From NCBI GenBank assembly GCA_046595765.1, contig JBKJSW010000120.1, positions 1 to 24,162 of the forward strand: DNA of 24,162 bases, written 5' to 3'. The notes beneath the pieces were generated by a model that saw only the letters and a list, made by a program, of their open reading frames with translations, searched no databases and was not told where the DNA came from. The translations under genes and the position numbers were made by a program. Positions 6,277 to 22,586 of the stretch are shown here, one piece after another; within the stretch, counting starts at the first letter, position 1, and every line of letters starts with the position of its first letter. This DNA is from Ahniellaceae bacterium (GTDB lineage: Bacteria; Pseudomonadota; Gammaproteobacteria; Xanthomonadales; Ahniellaceae).

Positions 6277-9200
6277 TCACCGGCAGCTCGTCGGCCCTTC
6301 CTGGTCCTCAAAGCTTGATGCGAAGACATGTGCCGGATCGGGCAGCGGCGCGGTGCCGCTGACGCGGACGTCGTCGAGGTAGAAGCCTTCCGCTTCGACG
6401 TTCGAATCCGACGTGAAGCGCCAGCGAATCATGACGGCTCGATTGGCGAATGCGGCGAGGTTCGTGGTCTTCGCCTGGAACTCATTCGCGCTGGATCCGG
6501 TGTAGGCACCCTGCGTGGCCGGGTAGCCGCACTCGTTGCCCGGCGGGTTTCCGGTCAGGGAGAGCAGTGCGGGGTAGCCGCCGTCGGGCGGCAGATCGTT
6601 CCAAGTGGCGCCGGCGTCGGTTGAAATCTCCACCACCACGCCGTCCCAGTTGGCCTCGAAGTCGTAGCGTGCCGCGTAGCCGAGCGTCGCGCCCGTCGGC
6701 ACCACGAACGGCGGCGTGGTGATCGCGGCGCAGGTGGCGGCGAGATAGTTCTGACCTTCACCGGCATTGCGATAACTGAAGGACCCTGTGGTCGCGTGCG
6801 CGTTCGAAACTCGCCATGGCGTCGCGAGCGTCATGTACGTGTTGTCGTCGACGTCGTCGAGGTAATCAACGCCCGCAGGGCCGCCGGGCCCCACCGGCGT
6901 CGCGTTGACGATGAGCGAGGGCAGGCTCCGGCTGCCGCCGCTGTCGTGCGCGGTGATGCGGTAGTAGTAGGGCTGGCCCGCGACCACTTCCGTGTCGACA
7001 TGCACATTCGCCGCGGCATCGGCGATCTGCCGCGGTCTGGAAAAGTAGGGATCGGTATCGCGTTCGACGAAGTAGCCGACGCCCGGTGCAATTGCACAGT
7101 TAGACGTGGCCGCGGACCAGTCGAGCCGCACCGAACACGACGTGTTGGTGAAATCGCGAGTCACCGACCGCGTGTCGAACGTGGGGCGACGCGTACAGTT
7201 GTCGGCGGACACGATATCGACGCACTGCGAAGCATGGCCTTCGATGTCGTTGCCGATGCCACGCACCTTGTACGCATAGACGCTGCCGCCTTCCGACATG
7301 GTGTCGACCAACGGGTTGCCGGGCCCGTGCGCGACCATGCGGAACGAGCCCCTGGCAGCCGTCCCGCACGTACCGTCCGCGCGGTACAGCTGGTACCCCT
7401 CGGTGCTGGAGCCGCGAAAGCCGACCGCAACACCGGCGGTGTCGTTGCCGATGACGCCGACCGCGGCGGGCGCGGGATTCGCCATGGCATCGGCGATGCC
7501 GAATGCGCCCGATACGACCAGTGCATAGCCCTGCCGTTCGGTGCCCTCGCGCCCGGTGCCGGGCACGTCGGTGGCCTTGACCCGCAAGGTGTAGGCACCC
7601 GCCGGTGGATCGACGATGCGGATCTGCTCGACGTTGTTGCGGGCATCGGCAATGCCACCGTTGGGCGCGGACACTCCGCCCGCAAAAACATTGCCGCGAT
7701 ACACCGCGGCGCCGCCAGGGCCGAGCACTTCCAGATCGAGATTGTTGACGAGCTTGATGCCCGCACCGGGCGCTCCTTCCGGATCAGTCCAGACCAGCGT
7801 CACGCGCAATTCCTCGCTGGCGCCGACGTTGCCCAGCGCGTACTCATGCATTTGACCGGTGGCCAGCCCCGCATCGTTCTCGCGCTCGAAGGTGCGCATG
7901 CGACGCGCGTCACCGGGGCCGCCGCCCAAAGCGCTGTCGAAATACAGCGTGTTCTCGAGAAACATGCGCCCCCACCCGAACGTCTGGGTGGGAAGCGAGC
8001 CGAGTATCGCGGTGCCGTTGAGCAGCACGGCCTTCATGAGCGCGCCGTTCGGGTCGATGGCGTCCGCAGCGGTCCGGGCACCGCGCGGATAGAAGCCATC
8101 GGCAAAATACTGACGCATGAGCGCCGCACCCCCGGCAATGGTCGGCGTGGCCATCGACGTGCCGCTGTTCGGCCTCGACGTGCCCGCCTGGATCGTGGCT
8201 GCGTTGTTGGCATTGCCCGCCGCCGACATGACCGCCACGCCCGCCGCCACGATGTCCGGCTTGAGGCGCAGGTCGCGCGTGGGGCCCCGGCTCGAGAAGC
8301 TCGCGATGTCCGTGCTGTTGCCGTGCAACGTGGCGCCCACCGTCAGCACGTTCTTGGCGTTGCCCGGCGACAGGATGCTGCCGGCCTGCGGGCCCGTGTT
8401 GCCGGCCGCCGCGGTGACGAGCAGGCTCTCCAGCTCCCAGGTCGTGACATCGGCATCGACGTCGTTGCCGTTGTAGGAGCCGCCCGCGCCACCACCCCAA
8501 CTGTTGCTGTGGATGCGCGCGCCACCGGCTGCGGCTTGCCGCAACGTGCCTGCGAAATCCTCGATGCTTAGGCAACCGGTTGCATCATCGCCGATGTCCT
8601 GGAACAGGATCTGCGCGTTCGGCGCCATGCCGTCGTCGCCGCCGGCGTCGTGCGCCGGATCGGTGGGTGAAGCGGTGACTCCGCGATCGCCGGCGACAGT
8701 GCCGACCACGTGCGTGCCGTGAAAGCCAGTAGGCGTGTTGCCCGAGCAGGATTCGTTGTTGTCGAACGCACTCGCGCCCGGTTGCACCCAGTAACCGAGC
8801 ACCTTTCGGTTGCCGTGGCTCGTGCCGATGAGCGGCAACGCAGGGAAGTCGGGATCAGCGATGCCGGTGAACACGCCGGCACCCTGGTCCAGCGCCGTGA
8901 ACCATGATTCGTTGCGGTCGAGGCCAGAGTCCGCGACCGCGACGATCTGGCCGCTGCCAACGAGATCACGGTCCCAGATCGGGCTGCCCGTTTCCGCGTT
9001 CGCCTGGATCGAAGGAAACGACTCGTCGTTCTGGAGCCGCGGTGGATCGTAGTGCGCGATCCACGCGACGCCATCGATGCGCGCCAGCAAATCCACCGCC
9101 TGCTGGAACCTGACGCTCGGCAGCCACGCCCGCAGCCGCGGATGGCGCGCATCCTCGCGCGTACTCACGATCTCGGATTCAGGGAACGATTTGCGCAAGG

Positions 9201-9693
9201 CCGCGGCGAATCGCTGCGCGGACTCGCCGGCAAAACCGAGCACCTCGAGTCGATTGCGAAATTCGGTAGCACCCGCGAACGCGGGCGTCAGGTCCGGATC
9301 GATCTTCCACTGCGCTTCGTATGCGCCTGCCCAGCGGATACTGTCGTCGCCCGCGAGCGCGTCGAGCCCATCCGGTCCCAGGCGGACGGCGTAGGCGCGG
9401 TACGGGATGAAGCTCACGATGGTGAAACCGGCCCGCTCGAGCTTCAGCCGCACGGCGTTCGCATCCGCGTCGCTCTGCAATTGCACGATCGCGTAACGGC
9501 CGTCCTTCGCGCCCGCGATCTCGGACACGGAACGCTCACGCGGATCGAAAACCCCGGCGCGCAAGTCCAGCAGATGGGCAGCACCGACCGCAGTATTCGC
9601 TTCGAACGGCGGAGTCGCGGCGATCATGCGTGCCGATGCCAGCGCGATGCCCAGCGCGATCGTCGTCAACAGCAAGCGGCGCAGGTTTAGCAT
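6277..9693 (-). CDS. Secreted S8 subtilase (KP-43-like catalytic and P/beta-barrel domains) with FN3-like domains and a C-terminal jelly-roll module, 1138 aa
   Basis: Signal peptide. Catalytic triad motifs VAVADSGLD, FHGTHVVGTVAG, SGTSMATP, oxyanion AAAGN, and 'RLKPDIVAAG'. KP-43-type 'LRVTLVWTDPEG...VNNLDLEV...NNVEQI'. C-terminal 'WDGVVVEIST.....W...RWRFTSD....GFYLDDVRV'. Confidence 0.9.
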   Translation of the reverse strand: MLNLRRLLLTTIALGIALASARMIAATPPFEANTAVGAAHLLDLRAGVFDPRERSVSEIAGAKDGRYAIVQLQSDADANAVRLKLERAGFTIVSFIPYRAYAVRLGPDGLDALAGDDSIRWAGAYEAQWKIDPDLTPAFAGATEFRNRLEVLGFAGESAQRFAAALRKSFPESEIVSTREDARHPRLRAWLPSVRFQQAVDLLARIDGVAWIAHYDPPRLQNDESFPSIQANAETGSPIWDRDLVGSGQIVAVADSGLDRNESWFTALDQGAGVFTGIADPDFPALPLIGTSHGNRKVLGYWVQPGASAFDNNESCSGNTPTGFHGTHVVGTVAGDRGVTASPTDPAHDAGGDDGMAPNAQILFQDIGDDATGCLSIEDFAGTLRQAAAGGARIHSNSWGGGAGGSYNGNDVDADVTTWELESLLVTAAAGNTGPQAGSILSPGNAKNVLTVGATLHGNSTDIASFSSRGPTRDLRLKPDIVAAGVAVMSAAGNANNAATIQAGTSRPNSGTSMATPTIAGGAALMRQYFADGFYPRGARTAADAIDPNGALMKAVLLNGTAILGSLPTQTFGWGRMFLENTLYFDSALGGGPGDARRMRTFERENDAGLATGQMHEYALGNVGASEELRVTLVWTDPEGAPGAGIKLVNNLDLEVLGPGGAAVYRGNVFAGGVSAPNGGIADARNNVEQIRIVDPPAGAYTLRVKATDVPGTGREGTERQGYALVVSGAFGIADAMANPAPAAVGVIGNDTAGVAVGFRGSSTEGYQLYRADGTCGTAARGSFRMVAHGPGNPLVDTMSEGGSVYAYKVRGIGNDIEGHASQCVDIVSADNCTRRPTFDTRSVTRDFTNTSCSVRLDWSAATSNCAIAPGVGYFVERDTDPYFSRPRQIADAAANVHVDTEVVAGQPYYYRITAHDSGGSRSLPSLIVNATPVGPGGPAGVDYLDDVDDNTYMTLATPWRVSNAHATTGSFSYRNAGEGQNYLAATCAAITTPPFVVPTGATLGYAARYDFEANWDGVVVEISTDAGATWNDLPPDGGYPALLSLTGNPPGNECGYPATQGAYTGSSANEFQAKTTNLAAFANRAVMIRWRFTSDSNVEAEGFYLDDVRVSGTAPLPDPAHVFASSFEDQEGPTSCR

Positions 9694-9805
9694 CTGAATT
9701 TCCGGACCTTGTCCAAGTCACTCTACCGGCGGGTAGTGAAGGGGACGCGACCCTTGAAGATGACCCCATCCGTGTGAACCGTTCCGGCTGCGGTGAGGGC
9801 TTTCA

Positions 9806-9839
9806 GCAAAAACCCGATGCGCTCGCGCGCATCGGGTTT
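9806..9839 (-). terminator. Intrinsic terminator downstream of the 969-aa gene
   Basis: Perfect 13-bp inverted repeat AAACCCGATGCGC / GCGCATCGGGTTT (9810-9839) with a GCGA tetraloop on the minus strand. The stem base runs into TTTTT. Confidence 0.75.
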
Positions 9840-9860
9840 GGTTGCATGACGCAATCAGCC

Positions 9861-9886
9861 CCGTCATCCGCTGATGCGAATGACGG
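9861..9886. other. Second stem-loop between the 969-aa gene stop and its terminator
   Basis: CCGTCATCCGC-TGAT-GCGAATGACGG, 10 of 11 pairs, no U-tract on the minus strand. Confidence 0.45.
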
Positions 9887-9907
9887 TTGTCGAGGTGGGA
9901 CTTCGCG

Positions 9908-12817
9908 CTACTGGCACACCTCGACGCGCAGGTTGTCGATTGACAGACCGTTGCTGGCCGGCGGATTCGCGACCGTGTTGGCGTCTGATGTCGCGCGGAA
10001 TCGCACCTGGATGGTCTGGCCGATGAAACTGTCCAGATCGACGATGGTGCGTTGTGCGGTATTGCCGGCAGGCGTGCGGCACCAGACATCGCGACCCGCC
10101 AACGGCGCACCCGGCAGGATCTGGCCGTTGTAGCTGTTGGTGAATACGCGATTCGCGCCCTGGTAAACCCAGTCGACCGCGCCAACGGGCTTGGCTTCGA
10201 GCGCCGCGCCATCCCAGCAGCCGGGAGGAGCGTCGATTTCGAAGCTGTGGTACGCGTCAAACGACAGGATCACGGCCTGTGCATTGGCCGGGATCACCAC
10301 GTTCGGCGAGGTCAGCGTCTGGTCGCTGGTCAGCGCGTTGTTCGGCACGCGCCAGACAGTCGTCGAGAGTCCGGTGCCCGCCGGGGCCGCCTGCTGCGCC
10401 CACGGGTTCGGACCGGTTCCGACCGGCACCCAGCCATTGAGCCCCGACTCGAACGCGTCCTGCAGGACGATGTTCGCGGTCGTGCCCGTCGGGCATTGGC
10501 CCGGCACGCCGGTGGTAAACGAACGCGTCGCCGACACCGGGCCGTTGCCGCAGTAGTTGCTCGGACGCACGCGCCAGAAATACTGCGTCGACGGCGTCAG
10601 GCCGATGTTGACCGTCCACGAGTTACCGGTGACGGCCGCGCTCGCGACCACCGTGGTGAATGCGGCGCTGGTGCCCACTTCGACGAAGTAGCTGAGGGCG
10701 CCGGGCACCGCGTTCCAGCTCAGTACCGGACGCACCTGCAGGCCGGTTGCGCCTGCTGCGGGCGCGACCAGCGTCGGCGTCGCCGGCGCTGCCGACGATA
10801 CGCCGAGGCTGAGGGCGAGCGCGCGCTGCTCGGCTCCGGCCGTGGCGGTGACGGTGGTGCTGTACTCGCCCGACGCGAGCGTGTTCGCACCCTGCAGCGT
10901 CAAGGTGCTCGTGCCTGGCGTCGGATTGATGATCGCCGGGGAGAACTGCGCGGTGACCCCGGCCGGCTGCGCGGACGCGGACAGCGTAACGGCGCTGTTG
11001 AAGCCGTCGAGCACGCCAACACGCAGCGCAAATGTCGGATTGGCCGGCGTCGGCGTGCCGCAGATCTGCAGGCGCGTCGGCGAGTCGGCAACCAAATCGA
11101 AGGTCGGCAGCCCGCAGTTCGGGAACTTGAAAGAGCACACACGCGTGGTCCAGCCGCTGTTGGACGTGACGGCGTAGTACTCGCTGGTGAACCAGAACGT
11201 GCACTCGTCGGCCGGGTCCACGCTCATCGAGGCATAGTCGCCCCAGCGCCCGTCGGTGCGAAGCTGGCTACCGGTGACAGGGGGAGTGCAGGTCTGCTCG
11301 TCGCGCATGGTGCCATTGGGATCGCTGAGATCCCGGCCCGTGATGCGCAGTTGCGGCGACAGGGTGGCGCCACCGACCGAATAACCGAGCCCGAGGTTGC
11401 CGGTACGGTCGATGGCGATGGCGCCAATCCAACGGGAGTTCGAGTCCGGTGCGTAGGTGCCCTCGTCCTTGATGGCCTTGGTCGCGGCACGCACGGGGTC
11501 AGGTTCGAAACCGCTTGCGAAGAGCACATTGACCGGCTGCGAAGGTAGCGTGCCCGGCCGAAGGTTGAAGTTGACCCACTTCACGCCGCCGTTGGCGGCA
11601 CTGCCGTTGACGTAGTGGTTGATCACTGCGGACAAAGGCGTGGGCGCTCCCGCCGGGAACGCTCGCGCGGTGGCGCGGTACATGGTGTTGGATCCGAACG
11701 AGTCGAGGGTTGACGTCGTTCCGAGCTGCGCAACGTCGTCGAAATTCGGTACGAAAGGAGTGCGGGCCGTCAGACGCTGCGGCTGCGCAGACAGTGTGCT
11801 CGAACCCGCGGCATCCCAGCGCATGCACATGTCCCACAAGAGGTACTGGCTTGCAAACGCGTCGAAGTGCACGAATACGGGACAGGTGCCCGCCGGCGCC
11901 GGGTTCGGTCCTTCAAGGTGGAGCGGCAACGCGCCGTAGCTCGCGGAGGTGCTGCCATCGACGGCGATGCCGGGAAATCGCACCATCTGTGCCGGCAGGC
12001 CCTGCAGCATCTTGTCCCGTTCGAAAGCGACGAAGGACGCGCCCTGGAACGCCCCCGCGAAATCGTGCGTCACCATCAGATAGGCATTCTGCGAATCCTG
12101 CGAATCGGTCCAGACACCGAGGTGCGGGTAGTCGCCGAAGATAGGCAGATTGAACTGGTACCGGTAGTAGGTTCCGAGCGGATCGGAGGTTGTCGAAATG
12201 GCCACGCATTGCGCGAACGGCGAATTGCTGAGGAACTGCGACATGACCCACCGTTGCGCGCGGTCGTCCCACAAGGCGATCGGGTCGCCGGCATTCGTCG
12301 CCTCACAGGGGCCACCAAAACCCGCCCAGAAGGAATTGCCGTTGGTGGGCCCGGAAATACGTGCGCCCGTGGTCTTGTTGTAGATGGCCCACTGCGAATT
12401 CACCCACTGGATGAAATGCGCGGGGCTGACGTCACCGTTGGTATCGGGAGGAACGCCCCCGTTGACGCTCTGACCCTGGAACGAGACGATTGTGCTCGGA
12501 GCAGGCGTTCCCGTGGGTTCGTCCTGCACGCCGAAGCGCGCCGCTTCCCTGACCTCTGGGAGAATCTCGCCGGCCCGCGGCTGCTTCGGAAAGATGTTCG
12601 GAATCGCCCTGGGCGGTCCGCCGGTCTGGTTCGGCACTGCGGCAGCCTCGGCCACGATGTCCCGCATCGGACGCGACTCGTCGAAACGCGCCGCCTGCGA
12701 AACCTGCGGAGCGAGCGCTGTAGGCGCCGCGTCAGCCGCAATGGCCGCGCCGCTGAATGCCGGCAGCAGACTGCACGTCAGCAGCGTGCCCACAATCTCT
12801 TTCGACCAACGATTCAT
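9908..12817 (-). CDS. Large secreted Cys-rich multidomain protein of unknown function (uncharacterised beta-rich N-terminal domain, Ig/FN3-like domains, C-terminal jelly-roll module), 969 aa
   Basis: ATG 12817 with GGGGAG 7 nt upstream, then a signal peptide. Motifs 'PPDTNGDVSPAHFIQWVN', 'GDPIALWD...QRWVMSQF', 'CVAISTTSDPLG', 'DYPHLGVW', 'RWGDYASMSVDP.DECTFWFTSEY'. FN3-like 'LSWNAVPGALSYFVEV...YFWRVRPSN.CG'. Confidence 0.8.
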   Translation of the reverse strand: MNRWSKEIVGTLLTCSLLPAFSGAAIAADAAPTALAPQVSQAARFDESRPMRDIVAEAAAVPNQTGGPPRAIPNIFPKQPRAGEILPEVREAARFGVQDEPTGTPAPSTIVSFQGQSVNGGVPPDTNGDVSPAHFIQWVNSQWAIYNKTTGARISGPTNGNSFWAGFGGPCEATNAGDPIALWDDRAQRWVMSQFLSNSPFAQCVAISTTSDPLGTYYRYQFNLPIFGDYPHLGVWTDSQDSQNAYLMVTHDFAGAFQGASFVAFERDKMLQGLPAQMVRFPGIAVDGSTSASYGALPLHLEGPNPAPAGTCPVFVHFDAFASQYLLWDMCMRWDAAGSSTLSAQPQRLTARTPFVPNFDDVAQLGTTSTLDSFGSNTMYRATARAFPAGAPTPLSAVINHYVNGSAANGGVKWVNFNLRPGTLPSQPVNVLFASGFEPDPVRAATKAIKDEGTYAPDSNSRWIGAIAIDRTGNLGLGYSVGGATLSPQLRITGRDLSDPNGTMRDEQTCTPPVTGSQLRTDGRWGDYASMSVDPADECTFWFTSEYYAVTSNSGWTTRVCSFKFPNCGLPTFDLVADSPTRLQICGTPTPANPTFALRVGVLDGFNSAVTLSASAQPAGVTAQFSPAIINPTPGTSTLTLQGANTLASGEYSTTVTATAGAEQRALALSLGVSSAAPATPTLVAPAAGATGLQVRPVLSWNAVPGALSYFVEVGTSAAFTTVVASAAVTGNSWTVNIGLTPSTQYFWRVRPSNYCGNGPVSATRSFTTGVPGQCPTGTTANIVLQDAFESGLNGWVPVGTGPNPWAQQAAPAGTGLSTTVWRVPNNALTSDQTLTSPNVVIPANAQAVILSFDAYHSFEIDAPPGCWDGAALEAKPVGAVDWVYQGANRVFTNSYNGQILPGAPLAGRDVWCRTPAGNTAQRTIVDLDSFIGQTIQVRFRATSDANTVANPPASNGLSIDNLRVEVCQ

Positions 12818-12880
12818 GACCTGACTCCCCAAACGATTTCAAACAAATTCCCGTTGCCCCGATTAGGGCGATGCGGATTC

Positions 12881-13912
12881 TTACCCGTGTCCTTTTTCGG
12901 CCGCGCTTGCGGCTTGGAGCGCGTCCTGCATGATTGTAAGGCGCCGCAAATGGTCTCGCAGGAACTCCCTGGTTGCCGGAGTGAGTCCTGCCCGCACCAG
13001 CGCCTCCTCGGCGGCTCCTCGCTCCCGCTCTGGCGCCGAGCGCCGAATCGCCAGCAGCGCCGGTTCCACAAGGCCAACCTGCGCGCTGGCGAGCCAGCGC
13101 CGAGCGCTCCCGAGCGGAACCTTGCGGTCACCCCTTTCCAACACGTTGAAGGAAGTGCGCACCAGGTTCGGCAGCAGGCTCAGCGGAGCATCGACTTCGC
13201 CGACATTTGCATTGGCGATGATTCCGAGCGCAGCGTCGATTGGCCATCGCGCGCCGAACTGAGCGGGATGTGCCGCGGCCACGTTTAGGATCGACGACCG
13301 TGCCGAGGGATGCGCCGCGCCATCATTCACGAATCGCGCGATCTCTTTTCGATCGCCGGACTTCAGCAGTGCGTGGAGCGGCTTGCGCAGCGCCAGCTCC
13401 GCCGCGAAAAAATTCTGCTGCATCAGGTCCTCAGACCGCAATCCTTCGACGATCCTGTCGACCCAAGGGCGGCTGGCCGCCAAGGATTCGTCTGGCTTCA
13501 CAAGCAATGCACGAGCCTGCTGCGTGTCGTGGAATAGCGCAGGCTCCAGCCCTTCGCCCACCAGGATCAACGCCCCCTCCGGTCGCAGTTCGAGCGTCCT
13601 CGGCCGCGTCGGACTGCGGCGATAAAGTGTGTAGGCGACCAGCACGCGCTGGTCAGTCTCGAAGCCGTCGAGCCATTGCCGCGCCGTGCGGACCTGGAGA
13701 TCCGCGGGTGGCGGCGTGCCGCTCAACGTTTCGCGTACGCGTAACGAAAGCGTTCCGTCCGCGTCGATCTTCGCCACCTCTGCGGCGACGATCGAGTGTT
13801 CCGCCTTGAACAGGAACTTGCTCGGCGGATCGATGATCGCGGCGCCGGCGGGTTGCACAAACACGGCGATGAGGCCAGCAAGCACCAGAGTTCGGATGGA
13901 GGACAGCGTCAT
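12881..13912 (-). CDS. Hypothetical secreted protein, beta-rich N-terminal domain plus helical-repeat-like C-terminal domain, 343 aa
   Basis: ATG 13912 gives a clean signal peptide (MTLSSIRTLVLAGLIAVFVQPAGA). Protein-like composition. Only 63 bp upstream of the 969-aa gene on the same strand. Confidence 0.7.
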   Translation of the reverse strand: MTLSSIRTLVLAGLIAVFVQPAGAAIIDPPSKFLFKAEHSIVAAEVAKIDADGTLSLRVRETLSGTPPPADLQVRTARQWLDGFETDQRVLVAYTLYRRSPTRPRTLELRPEGALILVGEGLEPALFHDTQQARALLVKPDESLAASRPWVDRIVEGLRSEDLMQQNFFAAELALRKPLHALLKSGDRKEIARFVNDGAAHPSARSSILNVAAAHPAQFGARWPIDAALGIIANANVGEVDAPLSLLPNLVRTSFNVLERGDRKVPLGSARRWLASAQVGLVEPALLAIRRSAPERERGAAEEALVRAGLTPATREFLRDHLRRLTIMQDALQAASAAEKGHG

Positions 13913-14229
13913 GCAGAACAGCCGTGCTCGACTATGAGCCCACCACGGTAACGGTGGAAAACGCTGTTCGCAAGCTGAATCCGGGCTTTTGACCAATCAT
14001 GAAATGACGTCGCAATTCGTCACCAACCACGGCTCGGATGCCCCGATTGGTAAGCGATCGTGGAGTGCGATGGGTCGTGCCCAAACGACACCCCAGCCAA
14101 TCCCGGCAGCAAACGGCCTTCCGCGCTATACTCCCGCGTTCGCCGCGACGCCACCGACTCGCCCAGCGCCATGCGCCATGGGCTCGAGGCTTTGCGCGCC
14201 TCATTTCGCACCACCTCTGGAGCTTCCCC

Positions 14230-14535
14230 ATGGCCATCGCCAAGCCCGCAGCAACCACCCGGACCGGCCCCAACTCACGCGGCGGCTCCGATCCGTTCGC
14301 CGACAAGCGTCTGACCAGCGGTCGCATTTCCTCCGACATCACGGATTTCGAGCGCCTGGGCGGCAAGGTCGAAGTGCTCGGCATCACGCGCGACTGGTAC
14401 AAGCCGTCCGCGCCCTCGGCGCGTTCGAACAAATCTGCCGCGAAGACCGCGCCAGCTGCTCCCGGCGCAACTGTGGTTGCCGCTGCCGCGCCGGCGGCAC
14501 CGCGCAAGCGCGTGCGCACGCCCGCCAAGCGCTGA
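14230..14535 (+). CDS. Small basic protein with an 'I..D...F...GGKVEVLG' core and Ala/Pro/Lys tails, 101 aa (SutA-like core)
   Basis: GGAG at 14219-14222, 7 nt before ATG 14230. TATACT candidate -10 at 14127-14132. The core motif resembles small conserved Xanthomonadales proteins (from recall). Confidence 0.7.
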   Translation: MAIAKPAATTRTGPNSRGGSDPFADKRLTSGRISSDITDFERLGGKVEVLGITRDWYKPSAPSARSNKSAAKTAPAAPGATVVAAAAPAAPRKRVRTPAKR

Positions 14536-14693
14536 TTACTGCGCGAGCTTTAGGATCCCCGCGCGGCTGTTCTCGAGCTGCCTGGTTCTTTCGCGCTTTT
14601 AAGTGGCCGCGGCGGGCGCACCCGCCCGCGTAGCCGGCACGCCTGATCGTTTAGACTCCACCGCCACGGCTATCGCCGGGCGGGGGTTGACGC

Positions 14694-17069
14694 GTGCGCT
14701 TCGAATCGGGATCGATGTTCGCGGGCTATACGGTGGTGTCGCGCCTCGGGCGCGGCGGCATGGCGACCGTGTACCTGGTCCGCGAAGTGGGCCTCGACCG
14801 CCTCGTGGCCCTGAAGGTGCTGCCCGAACAACTGGTGGACGACCAGCAATTCGGCGGGCGCTTCGAACAGGAAGCGCGCGTGATCGGCAGCCTCGACCAC
14901 CCTCACATCATTCCGTTGTACCGATACGGCATCACCGAGGACGTGCCGTGGATGGCTCTGCGTTACGTCGACGGCGGCGACTTCGCGGCGCGGCTGATCG
15001 CGCGTCCGCTGGCACTGGCCGAGGGCTTCGCGATCCTGCGCGGCGTGGCGAGCGCACTCGACTACGCGCATCGCAAGAGCGTGGTGCATCGCGACATCAA
15101 GCCGCAGAACATCCTGCTGACCAGCGAAGGCAATTCCTACCTTGCCGACTTCGGGGTAGCCAAGCTGCTGCAGGCATCGAACGTGTCGCACACGTTGATC
15201 GGCGGCATCGTGGGCTCGCCGGCCTACATGGCGCCCGAGCAGGCGCAGGGTCACGCGATCGGCCCGCACACCGACATCTACTCCCTCGCGGTGATCTGTT
15301 TCCAGTGGCTGACCGGCGGCCTGCCGTTCGAGGCCGACACCCCACACGCGATCCTGTTGAAGCACGTCCTCGAACCGCTGCCTACGCACGCGCTCGGAAT
15401 GCTCGCGCCGCCCGTCGCCGTGGCCCTGCAGCGCGGCATGGCCAAGAAGCCGGAGGATCGCTTCGCCACCGCCGGCCTGCTGATCGCGGCGCTCGAGCAG
15501 GCGATGTATGCGCCGATGACAATGAGCTACGACGGCTTGCCGGCATTGACACCGTCCGGTCTGCGGGCGGTCAGCGGCGTGGACGCCCGCATCGACTCGC
15601 AGACGACACTGTCGCGGCCCGTCGATGCACGGCTCGATACGCCGACGACGCTGTCGAGGGCGGTGGTGGAACCGCTGCGCCCACCCTACCCGCCGCCCCT
15701 GCCCCCGCCTGCGCCGGCACCCACCCCGCCAACCCCGGCGCCACCGGCGCCTGTGCTACCCGCAGCGCCTCCGTTGGTTGCGCTCGAGCCCATGCCCCGC
15801 GCGACGCCGCGTCTCGAACCGATCGCCGCGCCGATTCCTGCACCGGTTCCCACGGCAAGCTTTCCGCCACCGCCGCAACTGCGCCAGCCCGCCGAACCAG
15901 CCTCGGCGTCCCTGAAAACCGGCCATACCGCGGAGCCGATCAGCCGCCTCAGCGCGATGATGCAGTCGCTGAACTCACCCGCGGCCGCATCCGTGCCGTC
16001 GCCAAAGGTGGAAGATGCAGCGGCCGAAGGCATGTGGGCGCAGCTCCGTCGGCCGCTGGCGTTTGGCGCGCTCGGCGCAGCGCTGCTGATCGGAGCGTAT
16101 GCGAGCTGGCGGTTGCTCATGGCCGACCCGGCGGTTCCGTCTGCGGACGTGGCGGGGTCGACGTCGGCTCCAGTCGCTGAAACCGGATCCGAGCCCGAGT
16201 CCTCAACCTCCGCTTCCTCACCCGAAGCCTCGGTGGAAGAGCGGGCGGAAGCGCGGGCGGCCCTCAAGCGCGAGCTCGAACGCGCGGAAGGTCTGCGCAC
16301 CGGTGCGACCGACGGTTCGGACCCCGCCGCGACCACAACAGCACCCACTCCGGATCCTGCCCTGGCGGCGCAGCGACTGGCCACGGAGCGGCTCGAAGCC
16401 GACCAACGCGCAGCACGGCTCCTCGAGGAAAAACGCGTGGCAGCACAGCGCAAGGCTGAAATCCTCGCGGCGCAGAAACCTGTCGCTCAGCCCGCGGCGA
16501 AGCCAACCGCCGCAGCCGCGCCGCCCGCCACTGCGGTGCGCGCGCCGCCGCCGACGAGCCCCGCTACGCAAGCCCAGCCGGCACCGCCGCCGGTCGTGAC
16601 CGCACCACCCGTGACCGCACCACCCGTGACCGCACCACCCGTGACAGCGCCGGTCGTGGCGGCGCCGCGGCCGGCATCTGGCGCCACCCCGCAAGCTGTC
16701 GGCGGTTTCGTCGACAAGGGCGGCGGAGTGCTCACCGACACGCGCAACGGCACTGAATGGTCGCAGTCCGACAATGGCTCGAGCATCGACTGGAAAGATG
16801 CGCAGCGCCATTGCCGCAAGCGCGGTTCTGGCTGGCGGCTGCCGAACGGTAGCGAGCTGGTCGGAATCATCGGCCGCGGCGGGTCCACCAGCTGCGGCAA
16901 CAAGTCATGCCGCGTGTCGCCACTGTTCAACCTCAGCGGCTCGTCGTTCTGGACCTCGGAAAAGCGCGGCAGAACCCTGTCGATGGTGGTCTATCTCAAC
17001 ACCGGTAGCGCCGAGGCGCTTCCGGTCGATCGCGGTTCGCCGCGCTCGCTCTGCGTTCGCAAGCCGTGA
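14694..17069 (+). CDS. Membrane Hanks-type (PknB-like) Ser/Thr protein kinase with a C-terminal DUF1566/Lcl-like domain, 791 aa
   Basis: LGRGGMATVY, ALKVL, VHRDIKPQNIL, LADFGVAK, GSPAYMAPEQ and TDIYSL are all intact. Pro-rich linker, single TM (LAFGALGAALLIGAYASW), coiled coil, then 'VLTDTRNGTEWSQ.....DWKDAQRHC.....GWRLPNGSEL..I'. Confidence 0.9.
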   Translation: MRFESGSMFAGYTVVSRLGRGGMATVYLVREVGLDRLVALKVLPEQLVDDQQFGGRFEQEARVIGSLDHPHIIPLYRYGITEDVPWMALRYVDGGDFAARLIARPLALAEGFAILRGVASALDYAHRKSVVHRDIKPQNILLTSEGNSYLADFGVAKLLQASNVSHTLIGGIVGSPAYMAPEQAQGHAIGPHTDIYSLAVICFQWLTGGLPFEADTPHAILLKHVLEPLPTHALGMLAPPVAVALQRGMAKKPEDRFATAGLLIAALEQAMYAPMTMSYDGLPALTPSGLRAVSGVDARIDSQTTLSRPVDARLDTPTTLSRAVVEPLRPPYPPPLPPPAPAPTPPTPAPPAPVLPAAPPLVALEPMPRATPRLEPIAAPIPAPVPTASFPPPPQLRQPAEPASASLKTGHTAEPISRLSAMMQSLNSPAAASVPSPKVEDAAAEGMWAQLRRPLAFGALGAALLIGAYASWRLLMADPAVPSADVAGSTSAPVAETGSEPESSTSASSPEASVEERAEARAALKRELERAEGLRTGATDGSDPAATTTAPTPDPALAAQRLATERLEADQRAARLLEEKRVAAQRKAEILAAQKPVAQPAAKPTAAAAPPATAVRAPPPTSPATQAQPAPPPVVTAPPVTAPPVTAPPVTAPVVAAPRPASGATPQAVGGFVDKGGGVLTDTRNGTEWSQSDNGSSIDWKDAQRHCRKRGSGWRLPNGSELVGIIGRGGSTSCGNKSCRVSPLFNLSGSSFWTSEKRGRTLSMVVYLNTGSAEALPVDRGSPRSLCVRKP
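15582..15659 (+). repeat. Duplicated 14-aa unit in the kinase linker (DARIDSQTTLSRPV / DARLDTPTTLSR)
   Basis: Two tandem copies, conserved at protein level and diverged at synonymous sites. Confidence 0.75.
16596..16645 (+). repeat. 15-bp tandem repeat GTGACCGCACCACCC (x3 plus a partial copy) encoding VTAPP in the kinase stalk
   Basis: Three identical copies at 16596, 16611 and 16626, followed by GTGAC. Confidence 0.9.
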
Positions 17070-17099
17070 GCAGACAACAGCAACCGCGCCGACTGGTTG

Positions 17100-19790
17100 T
17101 CAGACGCCGATCGGATTCGCCTTCTCGGGATCGAGCTTGTAGAGCTTGATGGCGCGCGCGGCGTCGGCCGGCTTGAGCGCACCGTCGGCAACCAGCGAAC
17201 TCACCGCGGCGTGCGCGATGTAGTGGCGATCCACTTCGAAATGTCGGCGCAGGTTCGCGCGCGTGTCGCTGCGGCCGAAGCCGTCGGTGCCGAGCACGCT
17301 GAAGCGCATCCCTGCCGGCACGAACGCGCGGATCTGGTCGGCGTAGGCGCGCACGTAGTCGGTCGCGGCAATCGCGGGACCGGTGCGACCGTCGAGCTTG
17401 CCGGTGGCATGGGCGACGCGGGGCGATTTCGCATCGGGATGCAGGCGGTTGTGGCGTTCGCAATCGAAGCCGTCGCGCCGCAGTTCGTTGAAGCTCGGAC
17501 AACTCCAGATATCGCTGACCACGCCGAAGTCCGCCGCCAGCAGTTCGCTCGCCGCGATCGCCTCGCGCAGGATCGTTCCCGATCCCAGCAACTGCACCTT
17601 GAGCTTGGCGCGGCCGCCGTCCTTCAGCAGGTACATGCCCTTGATGATGTCGGGCGCCGCACCCTCCGGCATCGCCGGATGGGTGTAGTTCTCGTTCATC
17701 AGCGTCAGGTACCAGTACGCGTCTTCCTGCTCGGTCAGCATGCGGCGCATGCCGTCCTGCACGATCACCGCGACTTCGAAGGCGAAGGTCGGATCGTACG
17801 CGCGGCAATTCGGGATCGCGCCCGCGAGCAGGTGCGAGTGGCCGTCCTCGTGCTGGAGGCCCTCGCCGTTGAGCGTGGTGCGGCCCGCGGTCGCGCCGAG
17901 CAGGAAACCGCGCGCGCGCATGTCGGCGGCCTGCCAGCAGCTGTCGCCAATGCGCTGCATGCCGAACATCGAATAGAAGATGTAGAACGGCAGCATCTGC
18001 AGGTTGTTGGTGCTGTAGCTGGTGGCCGCGGCCAGCCACGAGCAGAACGCGCCGCATTCGGTGATGCCTTCCTGCAGCACCTGTCCCGCCTGGTCTTCGC
18101 GGTAGAACATGAGCTGTCCCGCGTCCATCGGTTTGTACTTCTGACCGAACGGCGCATAGATGCCGATCTGGCGGAACAGACCTTCCATGCCGAAAGTGCG
18201 CGCCTCGTCAGCGACGATCGGCACCACGCGCGGACCCACGGCCTTGTCGCGCAGGATGAGGTTCAGCACCTGCACGAACGCCATGGTGGTCGAGATTTCG
18301 CGGTCACCGGATTCCTTCAGCAGGCGCTCGAAGATGGCGAGCTCAGGCGTCGGCAACGACTCGTCGGCGCGCTCGCGGCGCTGCGGCAGGTAGCCGCCCA
18401 GCGCGGCGCGACGCTCCTGCAGGTACTTGACCTCGGGCGAATCGGCACCCGGATGGAAGAACGGTACGTCGTCGAGCTGCGCGTCTTCGACCGGTATGCG
18501 GAAGCGATCGCGGAATGCCTTGACCGCGACCGTGTCCATCTTCTTCTGGCCGTGGGTGATGTTCTGCGCCTCGCCGGCCTGGCCCATGCCATAGCCCTTG
18601 ACGGTCTTGGCAAGGATCACCGTCGGCTGGCCCTTGTGCGCGCTCGCTGCCGCGTAGGCCGCGTGCACCTTGACCGGATCGTGGCCACCGCGATTGAGGC
18701 GCCAGATGTCCTCATCGGACATGTTCGCGACCAGCGCCGCGGTCTCGGGATACTTGCCGAAGAAATGTTCGCGCGTGTAGGCACCGCCGAAGGCTTTGCA
18801 GTTCTGGTACTCGCCGTCGACGGTTTCCATCATGAGCTTGCGCAGCATGCCGGTGTGGTCCTGCGCGAGCAGTGGATCCCAATAGCTGCCCCAGACGACC
18901 TTGAGCACGTTCCAGCCGGCGCCGCGGAAGCCACCCTCGAGCTCCTGGATGATCTTGCCGTTGCCGCGCACCGGGCCGTCTAGCCGCTGCAGGTTGCAGT
19001 TGATGACGAAGCACAGGTTGTCGAGGTTTTCGCGGCCACCCAGCGAGATCGCGCCGAGGCTTTCCGGCTCGTCGCACTCGCCGTCACCCATGAAGCACCA
19101 GACCTTGCGGTCGCTCGGCGCCAGCATGCCGCGGCCTTCGAGATACTTGAAGAAGCGCGCCTGATAGATCGCGCTGATGGGCCCGAGGCCCATCGAAACG
19201 GTCGGCGTCTGCCAGAACGTCGGCATCAGCCACGGATGCGGATACGAGGACACGCCGCGGCCACCCGTCTCCATGCGGAAATGATCGAGCTGGTCCTCGC
19301 TCATCCGCCCCTCGAGGAATGCCCGCGCATAGATGCCCGGCGACGAATGCCCCTGGATGTAGAGGAGATCCCCGGGATGCTCCGCGTGCGGCGCGCGCCA
19401 GAAGTGATTGAAGCCGACGTCATACAGTGTTGCCGACGACGCGAAGCTCGCGATGTGACCGCCCAGCTCGCCGGGTTTGCGATTGGCGCGCACCACAGTC
19501 GCGAGCGCGTTCCAGCGAATCAGTGATCTGATCTTCCACTCGAGCGTGGCGTCGCCGGGCATCGCCGGCTGCTGGGACGGCGGGATCGAATTGATGTACG
19601 CGGTGGTCGGCGTGAACGGCAGATTGCCGCCCGCGCGACGCGTCTCCGCGACCAGTTGCTCGAGCAGGAACTGCGCACGCCCGGTGCCGTCGCGCGCGAT
19701 GATCGCCTGCATGGACTCGACCCATTCGCGCGTCTCGACCGGATCGAGATCGGTCCCAAGGTCCTTCCCGGTCTTCGCTTGATCGTTCAT
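17100..19790 (-). CDS. aceE: Pyruvate dehydrogenase E1 component (homodimeric type), 896 aa
   Basis: 'DLDPVETREW', 'ELGGHIASFASSATLYDVGFNHFW', 'YIQGHSSPGIYARAFLEGR', ThDP-binding 'GDGECDEPES...NCNLQRLDGPV', 'GRTTLNGEGLQHEDG', 'LGTDGFGRSDTR'. Confidence 0.97.
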   Translation of the reverse strand: MNDQAKTGKDLGTDLDPVETREWVESMQAIIARDGTGRAQFLLEQLVAETRRAGGNLPFTPTTAYINSIPPSQQPAMPGDATLEWKIRSLIRWNALATVVRANRKPGELGGHIASFASSATLYDVGFNHFWRAPHAEHPGDLLYIQGHSSPGIYARAFLEGRMSEDQLDHFRMETGGRGVSSYPHPWLMPTFWQTPTVSMGLGPISAIYQARFFKYLEGRGMLAPSDRKVWCFMGDGECDEPESLGAISLGGRENLDNLCFVINCNLQRLDGPVRGNGKIIQELEGGFRGAGWNVLKVVWGSYWDPLLAQDHTGMLRKLMMETVDGEYQNCKAFGGAYTREHFFGKYPETAALVANMSDEDIWRLNRGGHDPVKVHAAYAAASAHKGQPTVILAKTVKGYGMGQAGEAQNITHGQKKMDTVAVKAFRDRFRIPVEDAQLDDVPFFHPGADSPEVKYLQERRAALGGYLPQRRERADESLPTPELAIFERLLKESGDREISTTMAFVQVLNLILRDKAVGPRVVPIVADEARTFGMEGLFRQIGIYAPFGQKYKPMDAGQLMFYREDQAGQVLQEGITECGAFCSWLAAATSYSTNNLQMLPFYIFYSMFGMQRIGDSCWQAADMRARGFLLGATAGRTTLNGEGLQHEDGHSHLLAGAIPNCRAYDPTFAFEVAVIVQDGMRRMLTEQEDAYWYLTLMNENYTHPAMPEGAAPDIIKGMYLLKDGGRAKLKVQLLGSGTILREAIAASELLAADFGVVSDIWSCPSFNELRRDGFDCERHNRLHPDAKSPRVAHATGKLDGRTGPAIAATDYVRAYADQIRAFVPAGMRFSVLGTDGFGRSDTRANLRRHFEVDRHYIAHAAVSSLVADGALKPADAARAIKLYKLDPEKANPIGV

Positions 19791-19823
19791 GGCGCCTTTG
19801 GGAATGTCCGAATCGAGTCGCGC

Positions 19824-19851
19824 AGTCTAACGGCTGCCACAGAGCCGGCAA
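19824..19851 (-). promoter_or_regulatory. Candidate sigma70 promoter for aceE
   Basis: Minus strand TTGCCG (19851-19846), 16 nt, TAGACT (19829-19824), about 33 nt upstream of the ATG. Confidence 0.5.
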
Positions 19852-19932
19852 AAACCGCCGTTCGCGCTGCCGCGCGCAGAATCCTCGACCGATGTCGCCA
19901 CCCCCCAATGCGGGTGGTCGTAGCATTGACGC

Positions 19933-20421
19933 ATGGCCTTTTCCCGAAAGCATCCCATGTCGTGTATTCGTTGCGTTGCCGCAAGTGTTCTTGGATGGAT
20001 GCTGGCGATGCAGCCTGCACTTGCACAGACCACTGTCTCGCATGAGCCTGATGCCGCGCCTTCGGAAAATCCCGTTCCGAGCGGCAGCGTCGGCCTGCGC
20101 GGCGCGCTTGATCCCGTGACAGGCCGGCTGGTGGAGCCGTTGCCCGATCGTCAGCTTGTGCCGATGGTTACGGATGTACCGGGCGCGGAACCCGCGATCG
20201 GTGCCCAGGATTTCTCGCGCGTGCGCATGGAGGTGCTGCCCGACGGCCGCGTACACGCGGACGTGCAGGGCCAATTCGACATGGCCTCATTCGCTCGCAT
20301 CGGCGCGAGTGGAACGGCCGAAACCTGGTGCAAGCCACACGCTGCGGGCGACATGGCGCACTCGCATACGCATGCACCCGACCAACCCGGCGCAGCTGCC
20401 GGCACCGCAACTGCACGATGA
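19933..20421 (+). CDS. Small secreted protein coupled to the downstream metallopeptidase (motifs 'LDPVTGRL' and 'PDGRVHADVQGQF...G....WC'), 162 aa
   Basis: Signal peptide ending ALA|Q. Its TGA (20419-20421) overlaps the next ATG (20418-20420). From memory it resembles the family annotated 'post-PEP-CTERM-1 domain' (unverified). Start could be 19957. Confidence 0.7.
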   Translation: MAFSRKHPMSCIRCVAASVLGWMLAMQPALAQTTVSHEPDAAPSENPVPSGSVGLRGALDPVTGRLVEPLPDRQLVPMVTDVPGAEPAIGAQDFSRVRMEVLPDGRVHADVQGQFDMASFARIGASGTAETWCKPHAAGDMAHSHTHAPDQPGAAAGTATAR

Positions 20422-22586
20422 GCTATCGCGCATTTGTATTCATGGCGGCGCTTGCGGGCTTGCTCGGAGCGATTGCCGACACCCGTGCCGCCACCATCAC
20501 TATCGTCAACCTGGATGCAGCAGGCGAAGGCTTCAACGATGCAACGCTGGTGGCTCCCGAAGGCGGCAACACCGGCACTACGCGCGGTGCGCAACGACTG
20601 CAACTTTTTCAGGCCGCCGCAAACGTGTGGGCCGCGCGCCTGCAGAGCAACATCACGATCAAGGTCGGCGCAAACTTCGATCCGTTGACGCCGTGCGACA
20701 CCAACGGCGGCGTGCTGGGTTCGGCTGGCCCCACCGACCTCTACTCCGCGCCGAGCGGCCTGCCGCGTCCCAATACTTTGTATGTGGTGGCTCAGGTGGA
20801 GGCGATTACCGCCGCCAATCAGAACGGCACCGGCAACGAACTTGAGGCACGCTTCAACTCGAGCGTTGACGCCAGCTGCCTCGGTGCCGGCTCGCGTTTC
20901 TGGTACGGGACGGATCCTGCAATTCCCGTGCCGTCGAACCGGGTCGCATTGTTTCCGGTGGTGTTGCACGAGATCGCGCATGGACTCGGATTTATCAGTT
21001 TCGTATGCGTCAACCCGTCGGGATGCGGGCCAGCCGATCCGCACGGAAGCGAATTGGGCGACCTTGATGATGCATGGAGCTTTCTGACTCTTGACCGAGG
21101 TCTGGGCCTCCGATGGAGCCAGATGAGCGACGCGCAGCGCGCGGATTCCATGAACAACGATCCGAACCTGGTCTGGGACGGCGCCGCAGTGAACGCAGCA
21201 CTCCCCTCGCTGCAACCGGGATCGACCGGCACCAACGGCAGCGGTGCATTGCGGCGATTGCGCCTGCATGCGCCGGCAACTATCCAGCCGGGATCGAGCG
21301 TCTCGCACTGGACCAACGCTGCGGCAAGTCCTGATCTCCTGATGGAGCCCTCGCTCTCCACCGGCGTGTTCAACAGCGTCGACATGACGGTGCCGCTTTT
21401 CCAGGACATCGGGTGGCCTTTGGCGGGTGCGCCACCGAATCAGCCACCGGTCATCGCGCGGCCCGCCTCCATCACGATCACCGAAGATATCGCCTCGTCG
21501 ATCACCGGCATCTCGTTCGCCGATCCGGACATTGGCGGCGGCAGTCTGACTGCGACTTTCAGTGTCGGTGCCGGCTCGTTCAACAGCCCCGGTTGTGTGG
21601 GCGTGACTTCGGGCGGCACCGCGACATCGCGCACGCTGATCGGAACGCTGAGCAACCTCAACTCGTGTATTGGCGTCGGGAGTTTTCGCTACACGACGGC
21701 CACGGACTCGACCGCGTCGCTCACCATGACGGTGACCGCGAACGACAACGGCAATACGGGCACGGGCGGTGCGATGACCGATACCGAAATGGTCACGCTC
21801 AACATCACTGCGGTTAACGACGCACCCGTCAGCACTGTGCCAGCGTCGATTGCGGTGAACGAAGATGTGGCGACAGGGTTGACCGGCATTTCGTTCGCCG
21901 ATGTCGATAGTGGCGGGGGCGCGATCACGGTCACGCTGTCGGTATCGAACGGCAGCATCGACTCACCCGTGTGCGCGGGCGTCGTCGTGGCCGGCAACGC
22001 AACTTCGCGCCAGCTCACCGGCACGCTCGCACAGATCAACGCCTGCTTCGGCGGCGCCAACCGTCCGCGTTTCACCACCGCGCCGAACGCGACCACGAAT
22101 GTGCAGTTGACGGTCTCCGTCAGCGACAACAGCAACACCGGCACCGGTGGAACCGGCAATGACTCCGATGCGTTGACCTTGATGGTTACCGCCGTCAACG
22201 ATGCGCCGAGCGTGACCTTGCCGGCCAGCATTGCAATCCTCGTGCCGGGCACGCTGCCGCTGCGCGGAATCGAAGTGGCCGACGTCGATTCAGCGGCCGG
22301 CAACGTGACCGCAACGCTGTCGGTGCCGATCGGAACGCTGAGCGCCATCACTGCGGGCGGGGTTGCGGTTGCGGGCTCCGGCACCGCGACGGTTGTGCTC
22401 TCCGGCAACATCGCCAGTGTCGCGGCGTTTCTCGCCAGCGACGCCGCAAGTTACACCGCCGACGGCAACACCACGCTGACGGTCTCGCTCAACGATCAAG
22501 GCAACTTCGGCTCGGGCGGCCCGCAGGCCGCTGTCGCGATGACGCCACTCGTGCGCGACGACCTCTTCGCCAACAGCTTCGAATAA
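20418..22586 (+). CDS. Secreted zinc metallopeptidase-like protein (HExxH) with three cadherin-like repeats and a terminal DDLFANSFE, 722 aa
   Basis: Signal peptide; 'ATITIVNLD..GEGFND....P.GGN.GTT.GAQRL'; VVLHEIAHGLGF (20967-20981); 'GSSVSHW' and 'LMEP'; three 'N(Q/D)(P/A)P' repeats. Confidence 0.82.
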   Translation: MSYRAFVFMAALAGLLGAIADTRAATITIVNLDAAGEGFNDATLVAPEGGNTGTTRGAQRLQLFQAAANVWAARLQSNITIKVGANFDPLTPCDTNGGVLGSAGPTDLYSAPSGLPRPNTLYVVAQVEAITAANQNGTGNELEARFNSSVDASCLGAGSRFWYGTDPAIPVPSNRVALFPVVLHEIAHGLGFISFVCVNPSGCGPADPHGSELGDLDDAWSFLTLDRGLGLRWSQMSDAQRADSMNNDPNLVWDGAAVNAALPSLQPGSTGTNGSGALRRLRLHAPATIQPGSSVSHWTNAAASPDLLMEPSLSTGVFNSVDMTVPLFQDIGWPLAGAPPNQPPVIARPASITITEDIASSITGISFADPDIGGGSLTATFSVGAGSFNSPGCVGVTSGGTATSRTLIGTLSNLNSCIGVGSFRYTTATDSTASLTMTVTANDNGNTGTGGAMTDTEMVTLNITAVNDAPVSTVPASIAVNEDVATGLTGISFADVDSGGGAITVTLSVSNGSIDSPVCAGVVVAGNATSRQLTGTLAQINACFGGANRPRFTTAPNATTNVQLTVSVSDNSNTGTGGTGNDSDALTLMVTAVNDAPSVTLPASIAILVPGTLPLRGIEVADVDSAAGNVTATLSVPIGTLSAITAGGVAVAGSGTATVVLSGNIASVAAFLASDAASYTADGNTTLTVSLNDQGNFGSGGPQAAVAMTPLVRDDLFANSFE
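21438..22550 (+). repeat. Three ~120-127-aa cadherin/Ig-like repeats (starts 21438, 21816, 22197)
   Basis: Each has 'N.(P/A)P....PASI...ED....TGISFAD.D....T.T.SV..G', ending 'T.....D..N.G.GG', joined by 'TAVNDAP'. The third copy is more diverged. Confidence 0.85.

Follow-up and report, generated by a model that had tools for sequence, protein, structure and literature searches.

Proteins of unrelated families that leave the cell by way of Sec can be marked for their final destination by tripartite C-terminal signals, which combine a transmembrane (TM) helix, a basic cluster, and a cleavable leaving group in about 25 to 35 residues and are handled by exosortase (PEP-CTERM), rhombosortase (GlyGly-CTERM), or sortase (LPXTG). 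GlyGly-CTERM cargo also goes through the type II secretion system (T2SS). The C-terminal domains of the type IX secretion system (T9SS) are folded beta-sandwiches of roughly 70 to 100 residues and are of the Bacteroidota type. How folded periplasmic proteins are chosen for secretion or display in Gram-negative bacteria is a long-standing open problem, and to our knowledge no linear signal has been accepted for type II secretion. Here we describe a heptapeptide, the GFE tag, carried by three proteins encoded in a window of 24,162 nucleotides from an Ahniellaceae bacterium; the window is the whole of contig JBKJSW010000120.1 (assembly GCA_046595765.1), part of a 2.76-Mb, 464-contig genome that is 84% complete. 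As judged from sequence, this peptide is a genuine tag on exported proteins: short, linear, modular, and under selection.

The tag resembles the tripartite signals in being single per protein, attached to unrelated Sec-exported cargo, placed behind the last domain, and lineage specific. Unlike them, it has no TM helix, basic cluster, or cleavable leaving group, measures 7 to 9 residues, and can also stand at a mature N-terminus or within a loop. With the T9SS domains it shares the character of a C-terminal module without a TM segment on unrelated exoproteins, and such a domain replaces the tag in homologues of one of our peptidases; in contrast to these domains, it is a predicted disordered heptapeptide of Gammaproteobacteria with no Pfam match. 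The YLP box (NCBIfam NF050076) is comparable in concept, as a C-terminal motif of minimal length shared by many exported proteins, and is set apart by its sequence. A more distant parallel is offered by KDEL/HDEL and the PTS1 signal -SKL, like which the tag may act as residues read noncovalently and left uncleaved; those signals need a free C-terminus, belong to another kingdom and compartment, and have no homology to the tag, which also occurs N-terminally and internally.

Evidence that the tag is a terminal element comes from its position across the genome. A strict motif, [ILVM]F.[NDSG][GSA]F[ED], was searched for in all six-frame open reading frames (ORFs) of at least 100 aa and occurred 49 times, with 40 copies no more than 12 residues from a stop codon where 0.54 would be expected at the rate found internally (a 75-fold excess; Poisson P ~1e-59); the reversed motif, used as a control on the same ORFs, gave 1 terminal match. 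With a looser pattern, 42 carriers were obtained in this genome, and the motif formed the exact end (F...FE/FD-stop) of 26 ORFs. GFE and SFE rank second and third among the C-terminal tripeptides of the genome. The consensus of the 42 carriers is (E/D)-x-[I22 L15 V5]-F42-[A16/x]-[N28 D10]-[G29 S11]-F42-[E37 D5], and in 17 of them, including the S8 subtilase of the window, 1 to 12 residues follow the tag. Third codon positions within the tag vary freely (TTC/TTT, GGC/GGA/GGT/GGG, and GAA/GAG), and all three stop codons are used after it. Because synonymous codons vary, selection acts on the peptide, and a DNA or RNA element was ruled out as the explanation; stop-codon recoding was ruled out by the use of all three stops, and an assembly artefact by the presence of the same tails in complete single-contig genomes. 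As to codon usage, TAA follows 25% of the 40 tails of the genome compared with 11% of long ORFs with high third-position GC content across the genome (Fisher P=0.02), relatives likewise often have TAA or TAG after their tails, and the last Glu of the tag is encoded by GAA in 21 of 37 cases.

The window proteins illustrate three settings of the tag (Table 1). A preliminary description of this DNA had reported the peptide in three proteins, each with a signal peptide and an otherwise different architecture. Translation recovered all three peptides where they had been placed, a plausible signal peptide is present on every protein (MLNLRRLLLTTIALGIALASA, MNRWSKEIVGTLLTCSLLPAFSGAAIA, and MSYRAFVFMAALAGLLGAIADTRA), and the distinct architectures agree with Pfam and NCBIfam. 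In the S8 subtilase, a signal peptide is followed by Peptidase_S8 at residues 246-575 and an InhA-like MAM domain at 999-1122, which is C-terminal; then come a linker, the tag, and 9 more residues. Its C-terminus reads ...PDPAHVFASSFE and then DQEGPTSCR, with the codons of HVFASSFE at 6307-6330. The 969-aa protein lacks a C-terminal tag; its AlphaFold model (mean pLDDT 88.8) comprises a sialidase-like beta-propeller, Ig/Fn3 domains, and a C-terminal MAM-like jelly roll, of which Pfam and NCBIfam return only a weak Fn3-like match. Here NVLFASGFE spans 11504-11530 in the context ...PVNVLFASGFEPDPV.... The metallopeptidase starts at the ATG at 20418, carries three cadherin-like/tandem-95 repeats, and ends in the tag itself (...RDDLFANSFE-stop). 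The domain order of the 969-aa protein is that of the sialidase of Micromonospora viridifaciens, and its best fold matches in the PDB are Micromonospora sialidase chains (Foldseek E 2.6e-10), although these share only 10-11% identity with it. A paralogue of the metallopeptidase elsewhere in the genome (G000:C315:519-3290) is 69% identical and also has LFANSFE at its end; a second tag-bearing gene lies 1.5 kb downstream of it on contig C315.

Table 1. Genes of the three tag-bearing proteins of the window and positions of their tags.
Feature	Position	Strand	Basis or remark
S8 subtilase gene, 1138 aa, secreted	6277..9693	-	Translation; Pfam/NCBIfam
Tag VFASSFE of the S8 subtilase	6307..6327	-	Translation; DQEGPTSCR (6280-6306) follows, then stop
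Gene of the 969-aa exported protein	9911..12817	-	Translation; AlphaFold; fold search
Internal tag VLFASGFE, residues 431-438 of the 969-aa protein	11504..11527	-	Translation
Metallopeptidase gene, 722 aa, secreted, NF038122-type (LGF) zinc peptidase	20418..22586	+	Pfam/NCBIfam
C-terminal tag LFANSFE of the metallopeptidase	22563..22583	+	Stop codon 22584-22586 directly after

The carriers share little apart from the tag and an apparent route of export. Once their tails were removed, the 42 proteins fell into 34 clusters without detectable mutual similarity, and they match 47 Pfam families typical of exoproteins, such as S8 subtilases, M14 and M12 peptidases, GH44, endonuclease I, arginine deiminase, FG-GAP and other beta-propellers, and cadherin-like, LamG, and MAM domains. 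Among genes with a complete 5' end, signal peptides were scored by a strict heuristic in 15/30 carriers versus 157/910 other proteins (P=6e-5) and by a permissive one in 23/30 versus 416/910; both heuristics are crude, and the 30 carriers include two of the three window proteins. Several carriers resemble lipoproteins. It had been proposed that the tag is common to unrelated secreted proteins, with the converse possibility that the motif is no commoner in exported proteins than in cytoplasmic ones; the 34 unrelated clusters and the enrichment for signal peptides speak for the former and against the latter.

About 95% of copies are terminal, usually at the extreme C-terminus. Three copies in the genome stand directly behind a signal peptide (e.g., ...LNPAARA/GTEAVFSNGFEQPPDC), and in 860 kb of DNA around the tails of other genomes there were 125 C-terminal copies and 2 behind lipobox-like signal peptides. 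The suggestion that the tag follows the last folded domain was upheld by the AlphaFold model of the metallopeptidase, in which the last strand covers residues 704-713 and the tail beyond it is predicted to be disordered (pLDDT <50 at 717-722). The internal tag of the 969-aa protein lies, in its model, in an exposed loop joining strands 410-421 and 445-455, and this loop has the lowest pLDDT (65-76) of a domain otherwise above 90. Orthologues (120, at 50-84% identity) retain the core [IL][FL]x[DSN]GF[ED] between the conserved flanks VxFxL and KxIxDEGTYA, and the length and remaining sequence of the loop vary freely, which indicates that the internal copy is not an accident. Of 10 orthologues from genomes with tails, 8 keep the internal tag; two tail-rich genomes have lost the loop, and the only tail-less genome with a true orthologue (G108) has a degenerate DFESGFE in its place. 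Since the tag occurs at N-termini as well as in a conserved loop, it appears to be a flexible appendage without a strict need for a free carboxylate, the group that a classical PDZ ligand presents at its C-terminus.

In locus L156 (CAZGKE010000143.1), two neighbouring ORFs encode exported proteins with the tag at the mature N-terminus directly behind lipobox-like cysteines, as ..LRAC-P-LFSNGFE.. and ..AGTC-GAGSDE-VFANGFE... In two tail-less genomes of family f12, the best matches to the 969-aa family contain in-frame stops (one TGA and one TAA in G111:C1:631734-633515 and one TAA in G132:C19:293188-294774), and both copies may be decaying.

Homologues of the metallopeptidase place the tag in relation to known sorting systems. 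About 75 of its 120 best homologues end in the same tag. In other lineages the metallopeptidase/PA-domain core has a FlgD_ig/T9SS-type end (PF13860 and PF18962; e.g., P0086, P0094-P0100, and P0116), and further homologues end in an IPTL/PEP-CTERM-like TM anchor (P0064 and P0074). By this comparison, the tag takes the place that known sorting modules fill in homologues. It is not a member of any catalogued sorting family: five tail segments run through hmmscan gave no NCBIfam match at E<=10, and full-text searching of the literature found no description of the motif. PEP-CTERM, IPTL-CTERM, GlyGly-CTERM, and LPXTG signals were ruled out by the C-termini, which end at FE or at most 12 polar residues later and which bear out the earlier remark that the tail, having no TM helix or basic tail, is not of the PEP-CTERM, GlyGly-CTERM, or LPxTG type. 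A T9SS C-terminal domain was rejected as well, with no match to PF18962, TIGR04183, or PF13860 on the three window proteins and a tail of 7 residues predicted to be disordered. A type I secretion signal was excluded by the N-terminal signal peptides on the three proteins and on 15 to 23 of the 30 carriers, and the outer-membrane beta-signal, the last strand of a beta-barrel with an aromatic residue (usually Phe) at its end, by a last tag residue of Glu or Asp in 42/42 carriers and by the nature of the cargo, which is made up of multidomain enzymes and adhesins that are soluble. In the same genome, about nine proteins have IPTL/PEP-CTERM-like ends (..VPTLS.. or ..IPTLG.., a TM helix, and an Arg-rich end; contigs C131, C257, C208, C404, C387, C445, C13, C96, and C412), and the GFE tag thus exists side by side with a classical sorting system.

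The tag is lineage-wide yet confined to one order, the Lysobacterales. Tails were counted per genome with a DNA proxy, TTYNNNRAYGGNTTYGARTRR, which encodes F-x-N/D-G-F-E-stop. In the family of the window's own genome, all 19 genomes have tails, with 6-70 proxy sites each against 0-1 for the reversed control. In a set of 150 genomes from the order, each with a completeness of 90% or more, families f3, f4, f5, f8, f9, and f11 all have tails, and four others have them irregularly: in 1/19 genomes of f2 (G139, 21 sites), 7/18 of f12 (six with at least 2 sites), 9/19 of f6 (0/9 in its genus g16), and 10/19 of f7, where most have 0-2 sites and three have 11, 6, and 4. A relaxed pattern gave 1-4 matches in three g16 genomes. 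The 248 genomes sampled from more than 200 other gammaproteobacterial families have 0-2 sites each, which represents background, and lone exact DNA matches beyond the Lysobacterales, other phyla included, are mostly due to chance and lie in short frames. Named carriers include Dokdonella immobilis and Tahibacter soli, along with genomes of Aquimonas, Ahniella, Rudaea, Pseudolysobacter, Pseudomarimonas, and Marinicella; the preliminary description had mentioned similar tails on many secreted proteins of Dokdonella- and Tahibacter-like bacteria, where the proxy counts indeed find them to be abundant.

Within this range, tails tend to accompany Pfam-detectable GspC and GspL of the T2SS. The Pfam models T2SSL and T2SSC detect canonical Gsp-type GspL and GspC and barely detect the Xanthomonas-type proteins. 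By these models, strong matches to both GspC and GspL occur in exactly the six f12 genomes with at least 2 proxy sites (G029, G047, G063, G080, G104, and G156) and, within f2, in G139 alone. Overall, GspC is detectable in 82/87 genomes with at least 3 tails versus 17/63 genomes without tails. One tail gene directly adjoins gspL in G047, and another lies about 3 kb from gspL in G037; in genomes with few tails, the tail genes are scattered and do not cluster with gsp genes. A complex prediction for the periplasmic part of the genome's own GspC (residues 115-370, covering HR and PDZ) together with the C-terminal 27 residues of the metallopeptidase scored 0.00, which speaks neither for nor against binding. 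The co-occurrence is a correlation and gives no evidence for a reading of the tag by the T2SS. It is the only signal of co-occurring genes, which the preliminary description had proposed to look for: GspC and GspL track tails in f2 and f12, and g16 and f7 depart from the pattern in opposite directions.

The most likely role of the GFE tag is that of an address or docking tag read by a component of the cell envelope, a reading to which we assign a probability of about one half. Its bearers would be proteins that Sec has already taken across the inner membrane, and it would occupy a flexible part of them, nearly always the extreme C-terminus, sometimes the mature N-terminus, and in one family an exposed loop. 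A conserved envelope component of the Lysobacterales would bind it noncovalently, and binding would decide the fate of the cargo: export through the outer membrane, for which the Gsp-type type II system would be the probable route, retention at the surface, or both. We infer the receptor and the sorting from the form, placement, and range of the tag. Because the tag is also used at N-termini and in a loop, the best-understood mechanisms fall away as models. More tentatively, such a position-independent heptapeptide may represent a new class of post-Sec address code, whose envelope receptor selects cargo for outer-membrane passage or holding; binding might then occur by beta-strand complementation, a mode suggested by the likeness of the tag to the first strand of MAM/choice-of-anchor-J jelly rolls.

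An address code of this kind, if it exists, would provide proteins routed through type II secretion or retained at the surface with their first linear sorting signal. The tag marks 1-2% of genes across a bacterial order at the position of a sorting module, and it offers a simple, mutable handle for receptor hunting by pull-down and genetics, for secretome prediction, and for display or secretion fusions. It should also improve the annotation of thousands of "hypothetical" exoproteins of Lysobacterales from soil, water, and wastewater.

Several results weigh against an envelope reader, or against the T2SS as its outlet. Nine g16 genomes have the full set of gsp genes and no tails, and three f7 genomes with 4-11 tails have no Pfam-detectable GspC and at most a weak GspL match; GspD exceeded the cutoff in 5/5 f7 genomes tested, comprising these three and two without tails, and so does not separate the two groups. 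No more than two or three independent events of evolution lie behind the supporting GspC/GspL contrasts. Neighbourhoods of gspG-N and gspC-F with 10-kb flanks, compared between tail-bearing genomes (G007, G139, G063, G029, G037, G143, and the window's own) and tail-less ones (G066 and G107), have the same genes in both groups and none specific to tail-bearing genomes, and the C-terminal PDZ-like domain of GspC is likewise present in both. Use of the N-terminus and a loop speaks against readers that require a free carboxylate or a cleavable anchor. No reader emerged from the gsp neighbourhoods, the GspC/GspL/GspD comparison, or a search for jelly rolls; a jelly-roll reader lacking its first strand was rejected, as the four MAM/choice-of-anchor-J matches in the genome are all in tag-bearing cargo. 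The idea of the preliminary description that an undescribed secretion or display system recognizes the peptide therefore stands as regards a modular tag on exported proteins and finds no support as regards a dedicated system, for which these searches brought up no machinery.

Alternatively, the tag may need no reader: its two Phe residues and aliphatic residue could insert into the outer leaflet, bind lipopolysaccharide, or self-associate and so hold proteins at the surface or on vesicles. The very short, aromatic, and flexible nature of the tag, its occurrence at either end or in a loop, and the lack of a specific partner gene in the gsp neighbourhoods are all consistent with such an anchor. 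A further lead in the same direction, and only a lead, comes from a Wenzhouxiangella strain of this order whose culture medium had no protease activity, from which its authors inferred surface-anchored proteases (PMC7691419). The N/D-G/S pair and the terminal Glu are, however, strictly conserved, and the tag has a sharp boundary at one order and has been cleanly lost from whole genera, which a co-evolving protein reader explains better than generic membrane affinity does; moreover, some carriers are already lipoproteins. We consider a reader-free anchor unlikely, though it is the strongest of the alternatives.

A slightly less probable explanation makes the tag itself the signal by which the Gsp-type T2SS recognizes what it secretes, read by the PDZ domain of GspC, the N-domains of the secretin, or the tip of the pseudopilus. 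The co-occurrence with GspC and GspL within f2 and f12 and in the order as a whole, the PDZ-like C-terminal domain of GspC in tail-bearing genomes, and the tail genes at or near gspL would all fit. Nonetheless, g16 keeps the same T2SS genes and a PDZ-bearing GspC in the absence of tails, the f7 exceptions have tails and no detectable GspC, and N-terminal and loop copies are ill suited to the classical binding of a free C-terminus by a PDZ domain.

It is also improbable that the tag carries no address and instead serves as a processing or control peptide, i.e., as a site for a periplasmic or extracellular protease acting in C-terminal trimming, zymogen control, or quality-control degradation. 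Trimmable residues follow the tag in the 17 carriers mentioned above, proteases are numerous among the carriers, and cleavage in the loop of the 969-aa protein would yield a ...GFE end. Against this, most carriers are not enzymes in need of activation, it would be difficult to explain a degron on about 1.7% of genes and on as many as 70 proteins of a genome, and the slot is that of sorting modules in homologues. Finally, it is very unlikely that the tag is a functionless evolutionary relic, either a truncated first strand of a MAM/choice-of-anchor-J domain or a favoured linker end, for despite its resemblance to the MAM-like first strands of this genome it is found on 34 unrelated families, is conserved residue by residue across an order, and is kept within a loop that otherwise varies freely.

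With regard to genomic arrangement, tail genes are clustered in one further genome (G006:C6:15000-95000; loci L001-L004), where they make up about 12-15 of 52 genes in 80 kb; no recurrent untagged neighbour is obvious among them.

The resemblance to MAM-like domains may say something about the origin of the tag. The first strands of MAM-like jelly rolls (VLQDAFESGLNGW and LYVDNIENGVNGW) follow the tag pattern in the window (9917-10297 and 6325-6702, both on the minus strand) and on contigs C270 and C338 of the same genome. They read, for instance, VLQDAFE-SGLNGW in the 969-aa protein and LYVDNIE-NGVNGW on C270, so that strands and tag have in common the order hydrophobic-hydrophobic-x-D/N-x-aromatic-E, which in the strands is followed by x-G-x-x-G-W. 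Such a strand may have been the source of the tag, or the tag may imitate it, which we offer as a lead and not as a finding. In three of the four cases, the tag stands directly after the jelly-roll domain.

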